Assembly: GCA_963833985.1 (NCBI GenBank)
Contig: CAWIAD010000001.1
Coordinates: 2,880,001-2,944,000, forward strand
DNA from: an uncultured Planctomycetaceae bacterium
GTDB lineage: Bacteria; Planctomycetota; Planctomycetia; Isosphaerales; Isosphaeraceae
DNA length: 64,000 nt
Direction of reading: 5' to 3'
Under the pieces are notes generated by a model. The model was not told the DNA's origin and ran no database searches. It saw only the letters and a list, made by a program, of their open reading frames with translations. Every line of letters begins with the position of its first letter. Position 1 is the stretch's first letter. The position numbers and the translations under genes were made by a program. Shown piece by piece: positions 12,888 through 54,256 of the stretch.

Positions 12888-13340
12888 AGGCGAAAGCCCG
12901 GCGCGAGTCCGGCACGTTCCCGTTCTCATGAGTGCGGGACACCGGCGCGATCTGAGGCAACCTCGAGGGCGTCGAGCCGTCTTCCGCTGGCGAGCCTGAG
13001 CCGTTGACTCTCGAGCCTTTCGCGTAGGACAGGATTCCATTCTTGTCTCTTCAAACACCTCCATGACGCCCGGGCCGATCCTGCACCACCGGCGGATAGC
13101 CGGCGTAGGGAACCAGCCCCAGGGCGCCGGCCCACTCTCGCTCCGGGACCCGATCGTCGTCCCGAATGGCGGCACTGTGGTAAGGTTCTCGCTCCTGGCT
13201 CAGCTGCGCCGCAAGCGTACCTCCGCCCGCAAGCACCAGCCGATCCAGCAGCTCCCTGCTCGAATCCTGTGACGGCTTGACCCGCTCGCAGGGCGTCCCT
13301 CGATTGTCTCAGCAACCGAATCCCATGCTCGCCCCCCTGA

Positions 13341-13700
13341 CCAGAAGCGCGTCGAACTGGCACGGGGATTGGCCGCCCCGTAGGGTGGGTCGAGCGTCCC
13401 CGCGAGGCCCACCATTCGTGGAACCGGGGCCAGAAGCGCGTAAAACTGGCCCGGGGATTGGCCGCCCCGTAGGGTGGGTCGAGCGTCCCCGCGAGGCCCA
13501 CCTTTCCTGGAACCGTGGCCGGAAGCCCCTCGAACTGGCCCGGGGATTGGCCGCCCGGTAGGGTGGGTCGAGCGTCCCCGCGAGGCCCACCTTTCGTGGA
13601 ACCGTGGTCGGAAGCCCCTCGAACTGGCCCGGGGATTGGCCGCCCGGTAGGGTGGGTCGAGCGTCCCCGCGAGGCCCACCTTTCGTGGAACCGTGGTCGG
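13341..13700 (+). repeat. Tandem array of 4 x 89 bp units, each with a GTAG-type REP
   Basis: GTAGGGTGGGTCGAGCGTCCCCGCGAGGCCCACC at 13380, 13469, 13558 and 13647. Confidence 0.9.
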
Positions 13701-13890
13701 ATAGTTCTCGCGGTCATCCATGAACCTGAAATGACAGGCGACGAAGGGCTCGCCACGTGATCTCGTCATCTGCCTGGTACAGGGTGAGTGACCACGTCGT
13801 TCGGACGTGCGCGGCCTCCACTTCCGCCCAGGTCGGCGCCCGCGTACGTGAGCACGATGCTCGGATGGGCGATCCCGCCAGGCAGATACG

Positions 13891-13957
13891 CGTGACCACG
13901 TGCGTGAGCACGTGGTTCGGACGGGCGCAGCCTCCAACCTCGGCCGTGAGGCCGACC
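13891..13957 (+). repeat. About 67-bp terminal repeat downstream of the RAYT-like gene
   Basis: Matches 47373-47439, 47509-47575 and the reverse complement of 48168-48233; degenerate copies at about 13785-13870. Confidence 0.8.
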
Positions 13958-13966
13958 AGCACCTGA

Positions 13967-14888
13967 GAGGGAGTTCGGAAACTTGGGTGGGCTGGACAGA
14001 TTTTCTGAATTGAGCAGAATCTTCTCAGGGGAAGGGTAGTCATCGAACAAGGGCGGAGCCCGATCATGGACGAGCGCACGGCGCGGAAGGCGTATGAGAG
14101 CGATCTTACTGACGAAGAGTGGAGGATTGTCGAACCGCTCCTTCCTGCAGGGAAGTTCGGCGGCCGGCCGCGCACCACAAACATCCGCGAGGTGCTCAAT
14201 GCGGTCTTCTACTTGTTGCGAACCGGATGCGCCTGGCGACTCTTGCCCCACGACTTTCCACCGGCGGGCACAGTCTACGATTACTTTCGAGCGTGGTCCC
14301 GTGACGGAACTCTCCAACGAGTTCACGACATTCTTCGTCGACGGGTTCGTGTTGCAGCGGGCCGAAACGAGGAGCCCAGCGCGGCGTGCATTGACAGCCA
14401 ATCGGCAAAGACAAACGAGCAAGGGGGGATCGATGGATACGATGCCGGGAAGAAGATCATGGGGCGCAAGCGTCACATCCTGGTGGACACCATGGGGCTG
14501 ATTCTGGCTGTGGTCGTTCATTCGGCAGGTATCCAGGATCGGGACGGGGCGAAGGCAGTTTTCGATGCGATCAGGAACGACCTGCCACGGCTGCAGTTGG
14601 TCTGGGCCGACGGCGGCTACGCAGGCAAATTGGTGGAGTGGGTCAAGAGCGAGTGTGGTTGGGTCCTGGAGATCGTGAAACGAACGGACGACGTCAAGGG
14701 TTTTAAGCTCCTGCCCCACCGCTGGGTCGTGGAGCGAACCTTCGCCTGGTTGGGACGGTTTCGCCGAATGAGCAAGGATTATGAGTTCCATCCAGAAACG
14801 TCAGCGTCAATGATTCATCTTGCTATGATCAACATTATGGTGCGTCGGCTTGCTGCTGCCTAAACCGCGCAACTTTCCAAACTCCCTC
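13967..14888 (+). mobile_element. IS5 family insertion sequence (IS1031-like), 922 bp
   Basis: TIRs GAGGGAGTTCGGAAACTT / AACTTTCCAAACTCCCTC; TGA TSD at 13964-13966 and 14889-14891. Confidence 0.92.
14066..14863 (+). CDS. IS5 family DDE transposase
   Basis: [20 protein letters not shown] and [11 protein letters not shown] motifs. Confidence 0.95.
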
Positions 14889-14921: not shown

Positions 14922-15956
14922 TCACCGTGCAGGGCAGCCGCCCAGGTTCGCCAGGTGATGCCGGCCCAGCCGACCGGCCACGTCCCGCAGCCGTTCCCGG
15001 CTGGCGGCGAAGAACCGTCCCAGCAGCCGCCCACCCGCCAGCTTCAGCAGCCGTGCCTGCCAGCTCTCGGCGTTGCTCCCCAGCCGCTCCAATATCCCGG
15101 CCAGCTCCGCCGAGATCGCCGCCTTCCCTTCGCGGAGTAGTCGTCCCGTATAGTCCACCAGCAGCAGATAGCTGCCTAGCGAGAACCCGTCGACCATCCC
15201 TTCCCGCGCTGAGTCGAGCCGCCGGCGGTCCTCGATCGGACAGAGCCAGAGCTGCTCTTCCAGCCCGCTCGCCGCCTTCGACCCCGCCACACTGCCGACC
15301 TCGGCGGCCTTCAGATCCTCGGCGCGCTCCTGTTCCTGCACGTGCTCGACCCGCTGCTTGATCGACGTGTGCGGGCTGGCCTCCGGAACCTTGGCCATAC
15401 CCGCGGCCACCGGGTTCAGATCGATGTAGGCACAGGTCGCCAGCAGTGATTCCTCGTCCAGGATTGCCACGCTCTGGAACCGCCCCTCGAAGAATGCCCC
15501 GCGGGTGTTCTCCTCGCGGTTGGCCATCCGCGACAGCGGCTCCTTCAGGCACTTCATGAACCAGCTCAGGCTTTGCAGCCGCTGGCGAGCCATCGCCACC
15601 CACTTGGCGTCTTTCAGCCGTTCCGTGACCCACGCCTCCGAGACCGGCAATGCCTTTCGCGCCCTGTCGCGGGGCGGGAAGAGCCTCCCCCAGCGCCGCA
15701 CGACCTCTTCATTCGCCCACCCCGCCGCCACATCCGGGTCGAGCCGCACCAGCAGATGCAGATGGTTATCGAGGATCGCAAACCCGCCCACGGCCACGGA
15801 GAAGATCTCCGCAAGTTCCCGCAACCGCCGTTCGATCCATTCCTTGCGGTCGATCCCGCCCTCCCCCAGCAGAAACGCCCGCCGTACGCACCGCGTGATG
15901 CAGTGATACCAGCGGGTGACTGACGGATCAACCAGATGCGCACGCGCGATCGTCAT
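14922..15956 (-). CDS. RAYT-like Y1 HUH tyrosine transposase
   Basis: YHCITRCVRR, DNHLHLL (HUH), FFEGRF and YIDLNP (catalytic Tyr); AGGAG RBS. Confidence 0.9.
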   Translation of the reverse strand: MTIARAHLVDPSVTRWYHCITRCVRRAFLLGEGGIDRKEWIERRLRELAEIFSVAVGGFAILDNHLHLLVRLDPDVAAGWANEEVVRRWGRLFPPRDRARKALPVSEAWVTERLKDAKWVAMARQRLQSLSWFMKCLKEPLSRMANREENTRGAFFEGRFQSVAILDEESLLATCAYIDLNPVAAGMAKVPEASPHTSIKQRVEHVQEQERAEDLKAAEVGSVAGSKAASGLEEQLWLCPIEDRRRLDSAREGMVDGFSLGSYLLLVDYTGRLLREGKAAISAELAGILERLGSNAESWQARLLKLAGGRLLGRFFAASRERLRDVAGRLGRHHLANLGGCPAR

Positions 15957-16015: not shown

Positions 16016-16115
16016 TGCATTGCATGTCCTTTTTTCCTCTTTTTCTTTGCATGTCCTTTTTCTCTCTTTTTCTCTTTCTCTTCTCTTTCTCTTTCCTTTT
16101 TCTCTTGTCCTTTTT
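16016..16115 (-). repeat. Purine-rich stutter array at the upstream end of the RAYT element
   Basis: Minus strand is made of partial copies of AGAGAAAAAGGACATGCA and ends in AGGACATGCAATGCA. Confidence 0.8.
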
Positions 16116-16186: not shown

Positions 16187-16552
16187 ATGAAAGCCCTCTT
16201 CATCGAGTCGAGCGAGTTCACGGAGTGGGTCAAGGCATACCTGACCGACGAGGCGCTCTCGGCGCTGCAACGTGACCTCATGAACGACCCCGAGATCGGC
16301 GCTGTGATGCTGGGCTGCGGCGGCTTGCGGAAGGTCCGCATCGCCGACCCCAGCCGGGGCAAGGGTAAGCGGGGCGGGGCTCGTGTGATCTACCTGCACG
16401 TCCCGGATGCCAACGTTTTCTACTTCATCACCGTGTACGGCAAGAACCAGAAGGACGACCTGTCGCCCGGCGACAAGAGGCTGTATCGGCAACTCGCAGC
16501 GATCTTGAAGCAGCAGGCACATCCCGACAACGAGCCGGGAGGGGGAGCATGA
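16187..16552 (+). CDS. RelE/HigB family toxin
   Basis: GCGGLRKVR, GKGKRGGARVIY and YGKNQKDDL motifs. Confidence 0.9.
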   Translation: MKALFIESSEFTEWVKAYLTDEALSALQRDLMNDPEIGAVMLGCGGLRKVRIADPSRGKGKRGGARVIYLHVPDANVFYFITVYGKNQKDDLSPGDKRLYRQLAAILKQQAHPDNEPGGGA

Positions 16553-16998
16553 AGGACACATCGAAGCGTCTGCCGGTCGCCGAGCAGATCCGCAAGGGGC
16601 TGGAAGAAGCGATCCGGCATGCCAGTGGCGAGATCACTCTGAAGACCACCGTTGTCGAACTGCCGGATGAGCCACCTGAGATCGACGCCCCGACTCTGGC
16701 GGCGATCCGGGACCAGTCGAGGATGTCTCAGGCCGTCTTCGCCCGGCTGCTCAACGTCTCGACCAAGACCGTGCAAAGCTGGGAACAGGGTCTCCGAACC
16801 CCCTCGCACGCCTCTCGACGACTGATCCAGATCTACAGCCAGCACCCCGAGACCGTCTGCCAGAGCGTCGGGTTGCCCCCGATTAAGCTCCAAGGCGTCA
16901 CGATCGAGGAGGTGGCGTCGGGTCACCGCAGGATCGTGGTTCAGTGCGCTGGGAACCCAAAGAAAGTGAAAGTCCCCCGGTCTCCTACCACCCGCTGA
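16549..16998 (+). CDS. HigA-like XRE-HTH antitoxin
   Basis: MSQAVFARLLNVSTKTVQSWEQG; overlaps the toxin stop codon (ATGA). Confidence 0.88.
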   Translation: MKDTSKRLPVAEQIRKGLEEAIRHASGEITLKTTVVELPDEPPEIDAPTLAAIRDQSRMSQAVFARLLNVSTKTVQSWEQGLRTPSHASRRLIQIYSQHPETVCQSVGLPPIKLQGVTIEEVASGHRRIVVQCAGNPKKVKVPRSPTTR

Positions 16999-45585: not shown

Positions 45586-45625
45586 GCCCCTGAAATCGCC
45601 GCGCCGAGCGAACAGGGGCTTTTTT
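45586..45625 (+). terminator. Possible intrinsic terminator
   Basis: GCCCCTG...CAGGGGC stem followed by a T run. Confidence 0.45.
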
Positions 45626-45806
45626 GTTCGAGCAAGCTGAGCGCAGTGCAGCAGTTGCGGGCCGGTCGGCCCGCACTCGGCGTCTGAGCACGCGCCGTTT
45701 CGTCGCGCATGCCAATCACGCTGCACGAAGCGCGGCTAGTCTAAACTTCGGGGAACTCGACCGGTCCACCAAGGTGACCAGGGCAAACCTTGCAGGGAAC
45801 GAGCCC

Positions 45807-47143
45807 ATGAGCGACTCCGCGACCGAGTCGTCCGGACCTCCAATGGACCTCTCCGGAGTGGCCATGGAACAGCTGGACACGCTGGTCCACGTCACCAACA
45901 TCCAGGCCTGGATTTCGCTCGGCAGCCTCTTCGCCATCTGCGCGGGGGCCGTCCTGTTCGCCTTCGTTTACCGGGTTCCCAAGAAGGTGGTCGGAGAGGG
46001 CATCCTGCTGATCAAGAAAGATCGGCTCAGCCAGATACGCGCTCTGGGCACGGGCCGGCTCGTACGCCTGGACGTATCGCTGGGCGATACGGTCCAGCCG
46101 AACCAGCCCATCGGCGAGATCTACCAGGAAGATCTGCGAGACACCATCCGGGAGACAACCGCCCGGCTGGAACAGCTCAGGAACGAGAACGACCGGCTGA
46201 TCCGCTTCGAGGACGAGGAGCGAACCGCCCAGGACCAGGCGATCGCCCGGCTCAGGGACGCGGTCCAGCGCACCGTGGAGAATGCCACCGAAGGACTGAG
46301 GATCGCGCTGCGGATCGTCGAGGGCTCGGAGCGCTTGCGCCTGATCAGCCAGCTCAGCAACCTCGACTACCTGAAGGATCTTGAACAAAAATACACGATA
46401 CAGAACGACCTGAACAACGGCTACACCAAGCTTGCCGAGGTGGAGCTGACGCGCCTGACCTCGGAGAACCAGCGCCAGCGGCGCGGCTTCAGCGCCAGCT
46501 CGAGATCAGCAAGCTGGTGACGAAGCTTCGGCTGGACCGCGACAAGCTGGATCGGACCTCCCGGATTCTCAGCCATGAGACGGGCACGGTCACCCAGATT
46601 CTCACGGCTGCCGACGAGCTGGTGCGTGAGGGTGCTCCCGTCGTGCTGCTGTCGTCTCCCTGGCGGCCCATGCCGGGAACAGACGCCGACAAGCCCTACG
46701 ATTGCATCGCCTTCGTGCCGGCCGGCGAGGGGAAGAAGATCGACGTCGGCAATTTCGTCGAGGTGATGCCGGCGACCATCAAGCGCGAGGAGCACGGTTA
46801 CGTGCACGGCCGGGTGGTGTCGGTCTCCGAATTGCCCGCCACGCGGCTGGCCATGGAGGCAGCGCTCCAGCATCCCGACCTGGTGGAGACGTTCCTCAAG
46901 AAGTACGCGCCGGGCGTCTTGCTACGCGTGCACATCCAGCTTGTCCCGCGTGAGCCGTCCCCGGACCACGAGAGCGCGGCCGGCGATCCGGAAATCCTCA
47001 ATCGCTTCCGCTGGTCTTCCACCTCAGGCACTCGCCAGAAGCTGAAGACCGCCACGCTCTGCCAGGCCGCCATCGTGGTGGAAAAACAGCGCCTCATCGC
47101 GCTGGTCATTCCCTGGCTGAAGAAGTTCATGGAGCTTCAGTGA
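45807..47143 (+). CDS. HlyD-family peptide secretion adaptor (NHLP-system type), frameshifted near 46490
   Basis: EQLDTLVHVT...W-TM...VGEGILL, coiled coil, and GKKIDVG...VMPATIKREEHGYVHGRV...PAT. Confidence 0.85.
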
Positions 47144-47203
47144 TCTGCGGCCTGCCCCAGCCGTCTGGGTTCCGGCCATGGCGATCAGGCAACCATCTGC
47201 CCG

Positions 47204-47281
47204 GACAAAGACAGGACAAAGACAGACAAAGACAGGACAGACAAAGACAGGACATGCGACAAAGACAGGACATGCAACGCA
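47204..47281 (+). repeat. Stutter array at the upstream end of the second RAYT element
   Basis: Five head-to-tail copies of GACAAAGACAGGACATGC..., each with the same 5' start. Confidence 0.85.
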
Positions 47282-47372
47282 ATCCATCAGACACATCGCC
47301 GGGCCCCCGGTCCGCACGTCTCGGCGCTCGTGGCGCATGGCCAGGCTGCGCCAGCGCCCTGGATCCGCGGCG

Positions 47373-47575
47373 CATGGCCACGTGCGTGAGCACGTGGTTT
47401 TCACGGGCGCAGCCTCCAACCTCGGGCGTGAGCCCGACCTGCATATCGCCTCGTCACACCATCCCCCCGGCGCCGGTCCGCCAGTCCCGACGCTCGGCGC
47501 GTATGGCACATGGCCACATGCGTCAGCACGTGGTTTTCACGGGCGCAGCCTCCAACCTCGGGCGTGAGCCCGACC
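47373..47575 (+). repeat. Two copies of the 67-bp RAYT terminal repeat
   Basis: 47373-47439 and 47509-47575: CATGGCCACRTGCGTSAGCACGTGGTTTTCACGGGCGCAGCCTCCAACCTCGGGCGTGAGCCCGACC. Confidence 0.85.
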
Positions 47576-47605
47576 AGAACCCGGCTGACAGCCCTACGAT
47601 CTGGC

Positions 47606-48125
47606 TGATCTGAACCCGGTGGCCGCAGGGATCGCTGAAGTGCCCGAGGCGAGCACTCACAAGTCGATCAAGCAGCGGGTCGAGCACGTTCAGGAGCAGG
47701 GGCGAGTCGAGGACCTGAAGGCTGCCGAGGCGGGCAGCGTGGCGGGGTCGCAGGCGGCCGCGGGACTGGAAGAAGGCCTGTGGCTGTGCCCGATCGAGGA
47801 CCGCAGGAGGCTGGACTCGGACTCGGACTCCGGTCGCGGTCGCGAGGGGAGGGTCGAGGGGTTCTCGCTGGGCAACTATCTGCTGCTGGTGGACTACACC
47901 GGGCGGCTGTTTCGCGAGGGGAAGGCGGCGATCTCGGCGGAACTGGCCGGGATCCTGGAGCGGCTGGGAAGCAATGCCGAGAGCTGGCAAGCATGGCTGG
48001 CGAAGCTGGCCGGTAGCCGGCTACTGGGTGGGTTCTTCACGGCGAGCCGGGAGCGGCTGCGGGAGACAGCCGGGCGTCTGGGCCGGCATCATCTGGCGAA
48101 CCTGGGCGAGTGCGCGGCGCGGTGA
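47606..48125 (+). pseudogene. 3' half of a RAYT-like transposase
   Basis: DLNPVAAG...LWLCPIEDRRR...HLANLG is closely similar to the 14922..15956 product; the HUH motif and catalytic Tyr are missing. Confidence 0.88.
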
Positions 48126-48167
48126 AGTGGCGACGACGCGGTGATAAACGTGATGCGGCGCGGTGCT

Positions 48168-48430
48168 GGTCGGGCTCACGCCCGAGGTTGGAGGCTGCGC
48201 CCGTGAAAACCACGCGCTCACGCACGTGGCCATACGCCGCGGAGTCCATGGCGCTCGCGCACGTGGCCATGCGCCGCAGAGTCCATGGCGCTGACGCACG
48301 TGGCCATACGCCGCAGAGTCCATGGCGCTGACGCACGTGGCCATACGCCGCGGACGCCAGGACCGGTAGACCAGCGCGCGGCCTTGCGTGCGATGCCACG
48401 ACGTGCGGGTCGGGCTCACGCCCGAGACCC
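48168..48430 (-). repeat. Terminal repeat, 37-bp tandem repeat and partial terminal repeat
   Basis: 67-bp repeat at 48168-48233; CGCACGTGGCCATRCGCCGC units at 48221, 48258, 48295 and 48332; hairpin again at about 48408-48426. Confidence 0.85.
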
Positions 48431-49333
48431 CTGCGCCGCCAGCAGCTCGAGCACCTCGCGCGTGCACGGCGCCGCGCCACCGGAAGAGTCCAGGTCACGC
48501 TGAACCGACGAGATGAGCAGACGCATGGGGCACCTGAGGTGGAAGTGATAAGACCGCGCCGGCACACGCAGAGCACACCGCGGGGAATGTCGCAAACGCC
48601 CGCCGTTTTGATCGTAGACTGAATAAGACGGCACCATGCCGATGCTCTTTGACAACTCGGTCGATGGTTCAAATCAGCGCGACGCCCCGCAGCCAGGCGT
48701 CGCGCTGGCCGGAGGGATCTCCGGCAAGCCTCGCGGCCCACCACATGACATCCCGAGAAAGCAACGCGAAGATCGAAGCCAATCGAAAATGGAGGTTCAA
48801 GTTCAATCAGGCAAATGGTTAACGTCCGATGGCTTCGTTGCGCGATGGACAGAACGAAGCCATTTCGGGCAAGTCTTCGCCGGTGGGCGTACGAGCAGAC
48901 AAGCTGGTCCACCCGCACCGCTGTGAGCCAGGCAAGGCTGGAGGTGGTGGCGTCCTTCCGGAGCGGGCGTGCGAAGTTCTCGCCGCGGCCGGTGGGTGCC
49001 GATGGGACACGGAAACGGCTTCGGCAGCGAGATCGGGTACTGTGAGGGATCCGGCGGCCTGGGCGGCCCAGGCGAGGTCGCGAGGCGCACGTGATTCAGG
49101 GGCTTCCGTTCCAGCAATCGTTGAGGTTTGCGCGAGACGGACACACCGTGGGGATTGGGTAAACGAGGTGGGCGCTGGCAAGGCACTCCTTGACGCAGCT
49201 TGCTTGATTTGCCAGGCGCGACGGGGCGCGCATGCCGCGAGGCGGGTTGGGCTCATTCCAGCGCGCGATCGATCCGATACGAAGGTGGATGGAGCGGCGT
49301 GTGGCCAGCAGAGCAAGGGAGAGCAGGCCAGAG

Positions 49334-53761: not shown

Positions 53762-54256
53762 CCGAGCAGATCCGCAGAAGTCTTTGAGCAGGATTTCCGT
53801 TTCCTTGCCCGGAGGCTGAGGGCCCTGCCTGGCCGCTCTCCTCGTGGGGTACGATTCCAATCGTGCCATTCGATTCTCGTGGGGTACGATTCCAATCGTG
53901 CCATTCCTGGTTCATCAGATGGAAAAAGTGACACGATCGGGGATCGTGGCCCACGAAAAGCGGCCGGATGCTCTCCTCGTGGGGTACGATTCCGATCGTG
54001 CCATTTCTGGTTCATCAGATGGAAGAAGTGACACGATCGGAATCGTGTCCCACGAGGTGATCGAAAAACTGACACGATCGGCGATCGTGTCCCACGAGGT
54101 GATCGAAGAAGTGACACGATTGGAATGGTGTCCAACGAGGAGATGGAAGAACTGACACGATTGGGTATCGCGTCCCACGAAAAGCGGCATTCCGGTCATC
54201 AAGGATCGCATCAACATGTTGAATGCCTGTCAAAGAACTATGGCGAACCTGCTTGG
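53762..54256. mobile_element. MITE/REPIN-like element, expanded copy
   Basis: Imperfect TIRs CCGAGCAGATCCGCAGAAGTCTTTGA / TCAAAGAACTATGGCGAACCTGCTTGG; internal repeats of GTGGGGTACGATTCCRATCGTGCC and its inverse. Confidence 0.75.

Follow-up and report, generated by a model that had tools for sequence, protein, structure and literature searches.

HUH enzymes hold a 5′ end on a tyrosine and join it to a 3′-OH; in TnpA-REP the attacking 3′ base must match the cut site (PMC8266576). For TnpA-REP of E. coli, Ton-Hoang et al. (2012) presented a model of BIME amplification in their Fig. 7B, where the exact mechanism is called unknown (PMC3333891). In that model a GTAG-footed hairpin guides the cut at both breakpoints, each at CT, and whole BIMEs serve as units. 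The names TIRtron and TIRYT are used by Di Nocera, De Gregorio and Rocco (2013); in a TIRtron the Y1 gene lies within inverted repeats unrelated to REPs (PMC3733652). Subclass 2.3 of TnpA-Y1, as described by Quentin et al. (2018), comprises proteins of about 325 aa that carry YVDLNP, WE and TS motifs, have two insertions (about 10 and about 55 aa) and end in a long tail. It occurs mainly in Chromatiales and Alteromonadales and is without identifiable flanking structure (PMC6006769).

The window analyzed here is a stretch of 64,000 nucleotides from an uncultured Planctomycetaceae bacterium (contig CAWIAD010000001.1, positions 2,880,001 to 2,944,000) and contains an intact and a rearranged copy of a related element. 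The intact gene (14922..15956, minus strand) encodes a Y1 HUH protein of 344 aa with H65-L-H67, Y177 in YIDLNP, and T197-S198. The protein matches PF01797 at 24.3 bits (cut-off 23). Its structure model, built on 97 sequences, has a pLDDT of 94; an earlier model from 25 close sequences (pLDDT 53) was set aside. The best fold match of the model is E. coli TnpA-REP 4er8 (Z 12.0, rmsd 3.3, 162 aligned). The HUH motif, the Y---NP motif and this predicted Y1 fold place the protein in TnpA-Y1 class 2 (RAYT-like HUH). No polymerase or helicase fold stood out in the model, which is a weak absence. A DnaA-like or other HTH domain at the C-terminus is expected of TIRYTs as subclass 2.1; no HTH family appeared among the Pfam matches of the 97 members, the C-terminal tail being searched as part of the whole.

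By length and motifs the enzyme resembles subclass 2.3. Besides its 344 residues, YIDLNP and T197-S198, it has a helical insert at about residues 74–127, and the 97-sequence consensus carries FWEGRF and YVDLNP. The features in common with the published subclass are the length, the Y-DLNP and TS motifs, two core insertions, the long tail, and several copies per genome (PMC6006769). The HUH motif is NHLH here, whereas it is NHYH in subclass 2.3, and unlike the published description the planctomycete branch has inverted end motifs and arrays. The present genome (G000) has 13 near-full gene copies of 89–100% identity plus many fragments, and 12 of 13 same-genus genomes contain a match to the gene. 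Among named homologs, those nearest to it belong to Isosphaeraceae and other Planctomycetota; the Alteromonadales and Vibrionales proteins share 33–37% identity with it.

Judged by its layout, a predicted Y1 gene flanked by inverted repeats, the element is of the TIRtron type. It shares with TIRtrons the inverted repeats unrelated to REPs and the occurrence of end repeats at other places in the genome, singly, in pairs and in groups (PMC3733652). Its motif has a partial resemblance to the TIRtron motif GGGGWSAS: GGACAG matches the last six positions, A predominates at the two leading ones, and about half have T or C at the final one. Among 80 homolog loci the motif was found upstream in 66 and downstream in 46–47. 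Thirty-five loci are two-ended, and the 18 simple ones among them span 1.3–1.8 kb between the inverted motifs. In G000 the closing motif was present at only one of the 19 gene ends scanned, and at neither window copy.

The end motif of the intact element lies at 16016..16029 (minus strand), with a loose A-rich stutter array outside it (16030..16115, minus strand). An IS5-type DDE element (13968..14887, plus strand) is inserted 35 nt downstream of the gene. It has clean inverted ends, a 5-bp target duplication and no stutter, and serves as a single internal control. The remaining downstream region (13248..13967, minus strand) contains hairpin repeats and tandem repeats of about 89 bp, and no closing end motif was seen in it. 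The 89-bp repeats, at 13248–13612 in the tail of the element, are present in two to four copies in related elements. A RelE-type toxin and HTH antitoxin pair (16187–16998) lies directly outside the array of the intact element.

The array of the other copy is more regular. Positions 47204–47281 (78 nt) are five units, matching the earlier reading letter for letter. Four added units (47204..47257, plus strand) of 11, 10, 15 and 18 nt, at 47204–47214, 47215–47224, 47225–47239 and 47240–47257, have a common 5′ start and differing 3′ ends, and the fifth unit runs from 47258 onward. This innermost unit (47258..47284, plus strand) consists of a 10-nt tip and the end motif, which starts at 47268; it has no stable hairpin (folding z 0.6 and 1.5). 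The stretch reduces to a single unit via four exact tandem duplications of 18, 15, 10 and 11 nt, all of which can begin 10 nt before the motif GGACA[GTC]GC. The five-unit parse is confirmed. The 15-mer GACAAAGACAGGACA occurs four times in the 10.2 Mb genome, every time inside this array. Chance was controlled for in G000 with three reversed or scrambled versions of the end motif: an exact duplication of at least 7 nt, sought within 30 nt outside the motif, was found at 21 of 46 uncurated strict-motif sites and at none of 65 control-motif sites.

The original prediction had placed a looser array at 16016–16115 and given the two arrays a shared core, AGGACATGCAA(T/C)GCA. The looser array, which lies on the minus strand at a distance of 73 nt upstream from the intact gene, is real and inexact, and does not collapse by exact duplications. 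The core is indeed shared, but the true motif is wider, namely GGACA[GTC]GC, mostly followed by A. Each array derives from the tip sequence of its own locus, as had been proposed. The label of upstream end fits the array at 16016. It is wrong for the rearranged end at 47204, because inverted downstream hairpins adjoin it on the inside, followed by only the 3′ half of the gene.

To judge from its parts, the copy at 47204 is a rearranged, dead copy of the element. The outer flank (47183..47205, plus strand) is probably host DNA, and the two bases that close it also open every unit. Hairpin repeats usually located downstream of the gene are present in inverted orientation (47285..47577, minus strand; hairpins at 47420 and 47556), followed by a Y1 gene 3′ half encoding aa 179–344 with 83% identity (47607..48125, plus strand). 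This fragment has no HUH motif and has lost the Tyr177 position, and the copy is predicted to be non-autonomous. Downstream hairpin repeats and a tail of about 760 nt, common to three other places, complete the copy (48126..48890, plus strand), and no closing end motif was found there. Elsewhere in the window, a frameshift at about 46517, which may be an assembly error, splits the gene for an NHLP bacteriocin secretion protein (45624–47143), and at 54016–54190 a unit of about 42 bp containing an inverted repeat is present four times in imperfect tandem.

Assembled contigs of a single matching metagenome run (X1, share 0.11) include one of 271 nt (depth 3, about 96% alike) that tracks window 47044–47205, with six other letters and one gap, and then diverges. 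Its loose end has no match within the window, and none of the run's contigs spans the array. The contig is a candidate empty site for the 47204 array, and given its match through 47205 the notion that 47183–47203 represents an older element end was dropped. A sibling copy (G000 C2:495497) is preceded by the same 23 nt and has a single unit and an altered motif. Most simply, the sibling would have been copied from the 47204 locus before the array grew, and every unit would open with two host-matching bases; this draws on one contig, and a 2-nt match can arise by chance. Together the metagenome contig and the sibling suggest that the 47204 array grew in place. In the search for empty sites in relatives, six genomes matched the upstream gene alone (68–75%), and the five relatives' loci checked beside that gene showed no motif and are too distant for junction mapping.

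Regions next to homologs were tested for arrays, which proved common there and rare in flanks and inside genes. Of the homolog ends, 24 of 66 on the upstream side and 16 of 46 on the downstream side carry exact tandem duplications, compared with 5 of 384 flank positions and 0 of 80 in-gene positions; related loci and events are not independent, and these counts overstate independence. In this genome, 9 of 17 gene-upstream ends have them. Relatives' elements show mirror-image arrays at both ends. Fixed-start duplications were also seen by eye beside homologs in complete replicons of cultured Gammaproteobacteria, where four of six loci (L154, L156, L157 and L159) have duplications of about 10–170 nt at a related motif. 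Five loci of G014 had no array at the motif. A loose motif count failed to separate real from control motifs (84 versus 24–62) and was replaced by the stricter tests. A genome-wide scan for irregular arrays returned 250 loci, of which 91 match none of the motifs studied here, many being GC-rich chance repeats or CRISPRs; the scan shows other families and is no test of specificity. CRISPR-like arrays lie at G000 C1:682053-684891 and C1:1217158, one with an apparently repeated spacer.

Two further end families have arrays in G000. Nested arrays of GGGGCCACCCAC lie at C2:550943-551330 and C2:2518790-2518980, upstream of two homologs of about 470 aa, and arrays of GTGTCAGTTCATTTTTC, up to 470 nt long, at C2:3098441-3098910 and C2:2426965-2427215, upstream of two short Y1 genes. 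Each family sits beside its own divergent Y1 genes and stutters at the same offset as the main family. An abundant palindromic repeat, GACAGGCAAGAATGCCTGTC, has the same motif and stutter (C1:1958720, C1:2608997, C1:297110 and others). There are also mini-elements of 45–100 bp with two inverted end motifs and outward arrays, at C2:510432-510484, 3035175-3035227, 5023786-5023831, 5031483-5031528 and 3032794-3032893. Two mini-elements sit in Y1 gene copies, and one of these replaces about 500 bp.

Over all ends examined, 150 duplication events were found at 78 of 183 ends, and 105 ends had no exact duplication. Starts were searched from −30 to +3, and 114 of the 150 events, a set that includes hand-picked G000 ends, can start at −12 to −8 outside GGACA[GTC]GC; in an uncurated set 104 of 137 do so. 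Exact duplications are 7–117 nt long, and inexact or uncollapsed units with the same start reach 276 nt and about 557 nt. A common start with variable ends, as claimed for the window array, holds across events. The start had been described as a fixed site. Its position is indeed fixed, but it is set by a distance of 8–12 nt from the motif and not by sequence, since the dinucleotide across the start varies: among 68 microhomology-free events none was fixed at either the start or the end. Microhomology of 0, 1 and 2 nt occurs at 45, 33 and 13% of the junctions, versus 48, 31 and 11% for random joining. Among 64 clean events, 57 have a purine as the last base of the unit, where 68% would be expected. 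Outer units are shorter in the window array, and this trend did not prove general (30 versus 23 pairs).

Recent families conserve 8–10 nt of tip and diverge beyond it, with 62 matches versus 2 in controls in G001 and 27 versus 4 in G002. Alignment with an uninterrupted paralog, where one exists, puts the end of the shared sequence 8–14 nt beyond the motif in 16 of 26 rows; the remainder include self-matches and older layers. No target duplication above the null was found at the 18 simple two-ended loci of the 35. Acceptors are frequently the element itself. At L196 an open frame without a Pfam match enters the upstream end, and the far flank has no obvious continuation of it. Tips are low in complexity, though complex tips stutter too.

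Arrays differ at every copy, and several bear traces of successive growth. Units start within an earlier junction at L031, L094 and L146, and some arrays contain repeated two-unit blocks. The 46 cores at one end in G007 have tips that form three ordered layers of 13, 31 and 2, and the present end agrees with the innermost layer. The element concerned (L207, G007 C1:1038500-1048500) has arrays of about 1.1 and 1.4 kb with 29 and 46 cores. At one of its ends, 23 of 29 cores break off from the inner sequence at a single preferred base, immediately before an inverted tip copy. Units inside earlier junctions and ordered tip layers need several rounds, and array growth looks internal and ordered, with layered tips. 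Growth had been called telomere-like; the likeness to telomeres is only an analogy, because there is no free chromosome end, no RNA template and no polymerase fold found.

We consider it probable that the arrays grow in place, by a nick at a ruler-set distance, extension by a host polymerase and re-joining by the HUH enzyme. The enzyme would bind the end motif and nick the strand with the outward-pointing 5′ end, 8–12 nt outside the motif, and HUH chemistry would have this 5′ end held on Tyr177. In a productive event the held end would join any free 3′-OH elsewhere, carrying its 8–12-nt tip and leaving no target duplication; the junction positions and the missing duplication are seen in the genomes, and the chemistry is our reading of them. 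In an abortive event a host polymerase would extend the flank's own 3′-OH for a variable distance through tip and motif, and the extended 3′-OH would then attack the held end, giving an inserted copy with a fixed start and a variable end. Here the pattern is observed, and from it we infer the nick, the nicked strand, the polymerase step and the order of growth. Replication would fix the unit, and the cycle could recur at the innermost intact motif, so that older units are pushed outward and later units can copy earlier junctions. A slightly sloppy ruler and the purine 3′-end bias would let tips drift, purine-rich and specific to each locus.

A fixed 5′ start and free 3′ ends without homology are expected if the flank 3′-OH is extended before re-joining. 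In-place growth is also favored by the same offset in three motif families with divergent Y1 proteins (40/45, 14/18 and 8/8), and by the G001 and G002 copies, which have only the short tip in common. Against it, more than half of the ends lack an exact duplication, and some clear arrays, including 16016–16115, do not collapse exactly; mutation, homopolymer error or untemplated bases therefore also act. The host bases in units are supported by 1–2 nt at three ends. The base-match rule of TnpA-REP (PMC8266576) would force 1 nt of microhomology, and 45% of the junctions here have none. Where the acceptor of an end is known, the units in most cases begin at the transferred tip or within it, a pattern that would likewise agree with chaining during insertion.

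Such chaining would use the same enzyme and nick and make units only while the element inserts: the donor end would be nicked repeatedly, and the short Tyr-linked pieces set free would be strung together before their joining to the target. At L111, L082 and C2:510431 the units begin exactly where the acceptor junction lies, and the differing arrays at each copy would agree with it. We nevertheless regard this as unlikely, for copies of earlier junctions, two-unit blocks, tip layers and the single-unit sibling need more than one round of growth. Alternatively, a cut in the other strand might leave a fixed template end, and a polymerase that jumps or joins ends, such as LigD or PrimPol, might restart on it time and again without homology. 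This predicts the same fixed start and the lack of microhomology, and would suit the purine bias at unit 3′ ends; Ku and LigD were found in G000, G001 and G002. Yet G017 (99% complete) and G011 (92%) carry arrays although neither Ku nor the LigD polymerase was found in them, so that Ku/LigD end joining seems not to be required. Ku was likewise not found in the array-bearing G007 and G016, and fixed-start duplications also flank the homologs of Gammaproteobacterial isolates. We judge a jumping polymerase to be quite unlikely.

The low complexity of the tips could invite ordinary replication slippage in purine-rich sequence, perhaps at a protein roadblock, and the repeated blocks of large arrays could be multiplied by slippage or unequal recombination. 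Junction microhomology equal to that of random joining, with none at all at 68 of 150 junctions, argues against slippage. Moreover, only one of the two breakpoints varies freely, units can be hundreds of nucleotides long, and complex tips stutter. As the primary cause slippage is already contradicted and very improbable; it may add secondary expansions. A sequencing or assembly artefact, for which frameshifts in this assembly such as that at 46517 might speak, can hardly explain the arrays. Rates are similar in long-read and mostly short-read assemblies (upstream 11/32 versus 13/34, downstream 9/23 versus 7/23, read type being deduced from contig names), and the complete replicons of isolates have arrays as well.

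Growth in place has a precedent in the BIME model, in which a nick is made, a host polymerase extends the 3′-OH, the Tyr-held 5′ end is attacked and one unit is gained (PMC3333891). The present ends differ in having no hairpin and no CT rule, a start set by distance, and free 3′ ends. Hairpin recognition of the end is not supported, since the motif folds no better than shuffles; no GTAG foot was seen, and the hairpin repeats sit inside the element and not at its ends as in REPtrons. Among the 68 microhomology-free events the starts included CT twice and AG twice, and the ends AG seven times, so CT breakpoints of the REPtron kind are not the rule. IS200/IS605 elements have subterminal hairpins, precise ends and a fixed short target. 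The present ends do not behave like these, as junctions have no common target sequence and tips vary; unlike precise IS200/IS605 ends, one mini-element replaces about 500 bp of a gene. IS91, ISCR elements and Helitrons transpose in a one-ended, rolling-circle manner, in which a fixed end is joined to a 3′-OH and the far end is variable; IS91 and Helitrons use a Y2 enzyme and have ori and ter ends that differ from each other. The present elements likewise have one fixed end, a variable far end, no target duplication and flank capture. They differ in the single catalytic Tyr of a Y1 fold, in two similar ends that both act as fixed ends, with the same motif and mirror arrays, and in products mostly of 7–30 nt that land on the element's own tip.

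Both the class of enzyme and the layout with TIRs were known from publications. The original prediction knew of no description of the pattern, and the pattern is apparently unpublished, but its chemistry has a precedent as a model (PMC3333891) and the class of element has been named (PMC3733652). Among the works found, just two use the names TIRYT or TIRtron. The main-text passages of the TIRtron paper describe single, dimeric and grouped TIRs and no nested truncated units, nick position or junctions, though Figure 9 and the supplements may differ (PMC3733652). Tandem arrays are not mentioned in the main text of the subclass 2.3 survey, supplements apart (PMC6006769), or in the main passages of Bertels 2017 (PMC5581495). 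In the accessible literature, figures, supplements and closed journals apart, no description of nested end arrays, a ruler or such junctions was found, and the literature searched contained no test of these enzymes.

The end signature is real, widespread and apparently new to the literature, in an element class that already has a name. The present analysis adds a lack of microhomology tested against a null, an offset common to three families, a purine bias, layered tips and a candidate empty site. The arrays point to the likely binding motif, the nick distance, the strand and the acceptor bias, in a subclass for which the 2018 survey lists no flanking signal in its main text (PMC6006769). They would also be a trace, left in genomes, of the amplification by nicking, extension and re-joining that was put forward in 2012 for REP/BIME arrays. 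We put forward, tentatively, a TIR-associated Y1 route in which ruler-nicked ends each independently capture a free, preferably purine 3′-OH, and in which reaction with the own flank yields an inward-growing, ordered array of up to 1.4 kb that records activity in layers. If the ends do capture free 3′-OH groups, these elements would drive deletions and rearrangements rather than clean insertions, and the enzyme would be a candidate tool with which a chosen 5′ end could be linked to any 3′ end.
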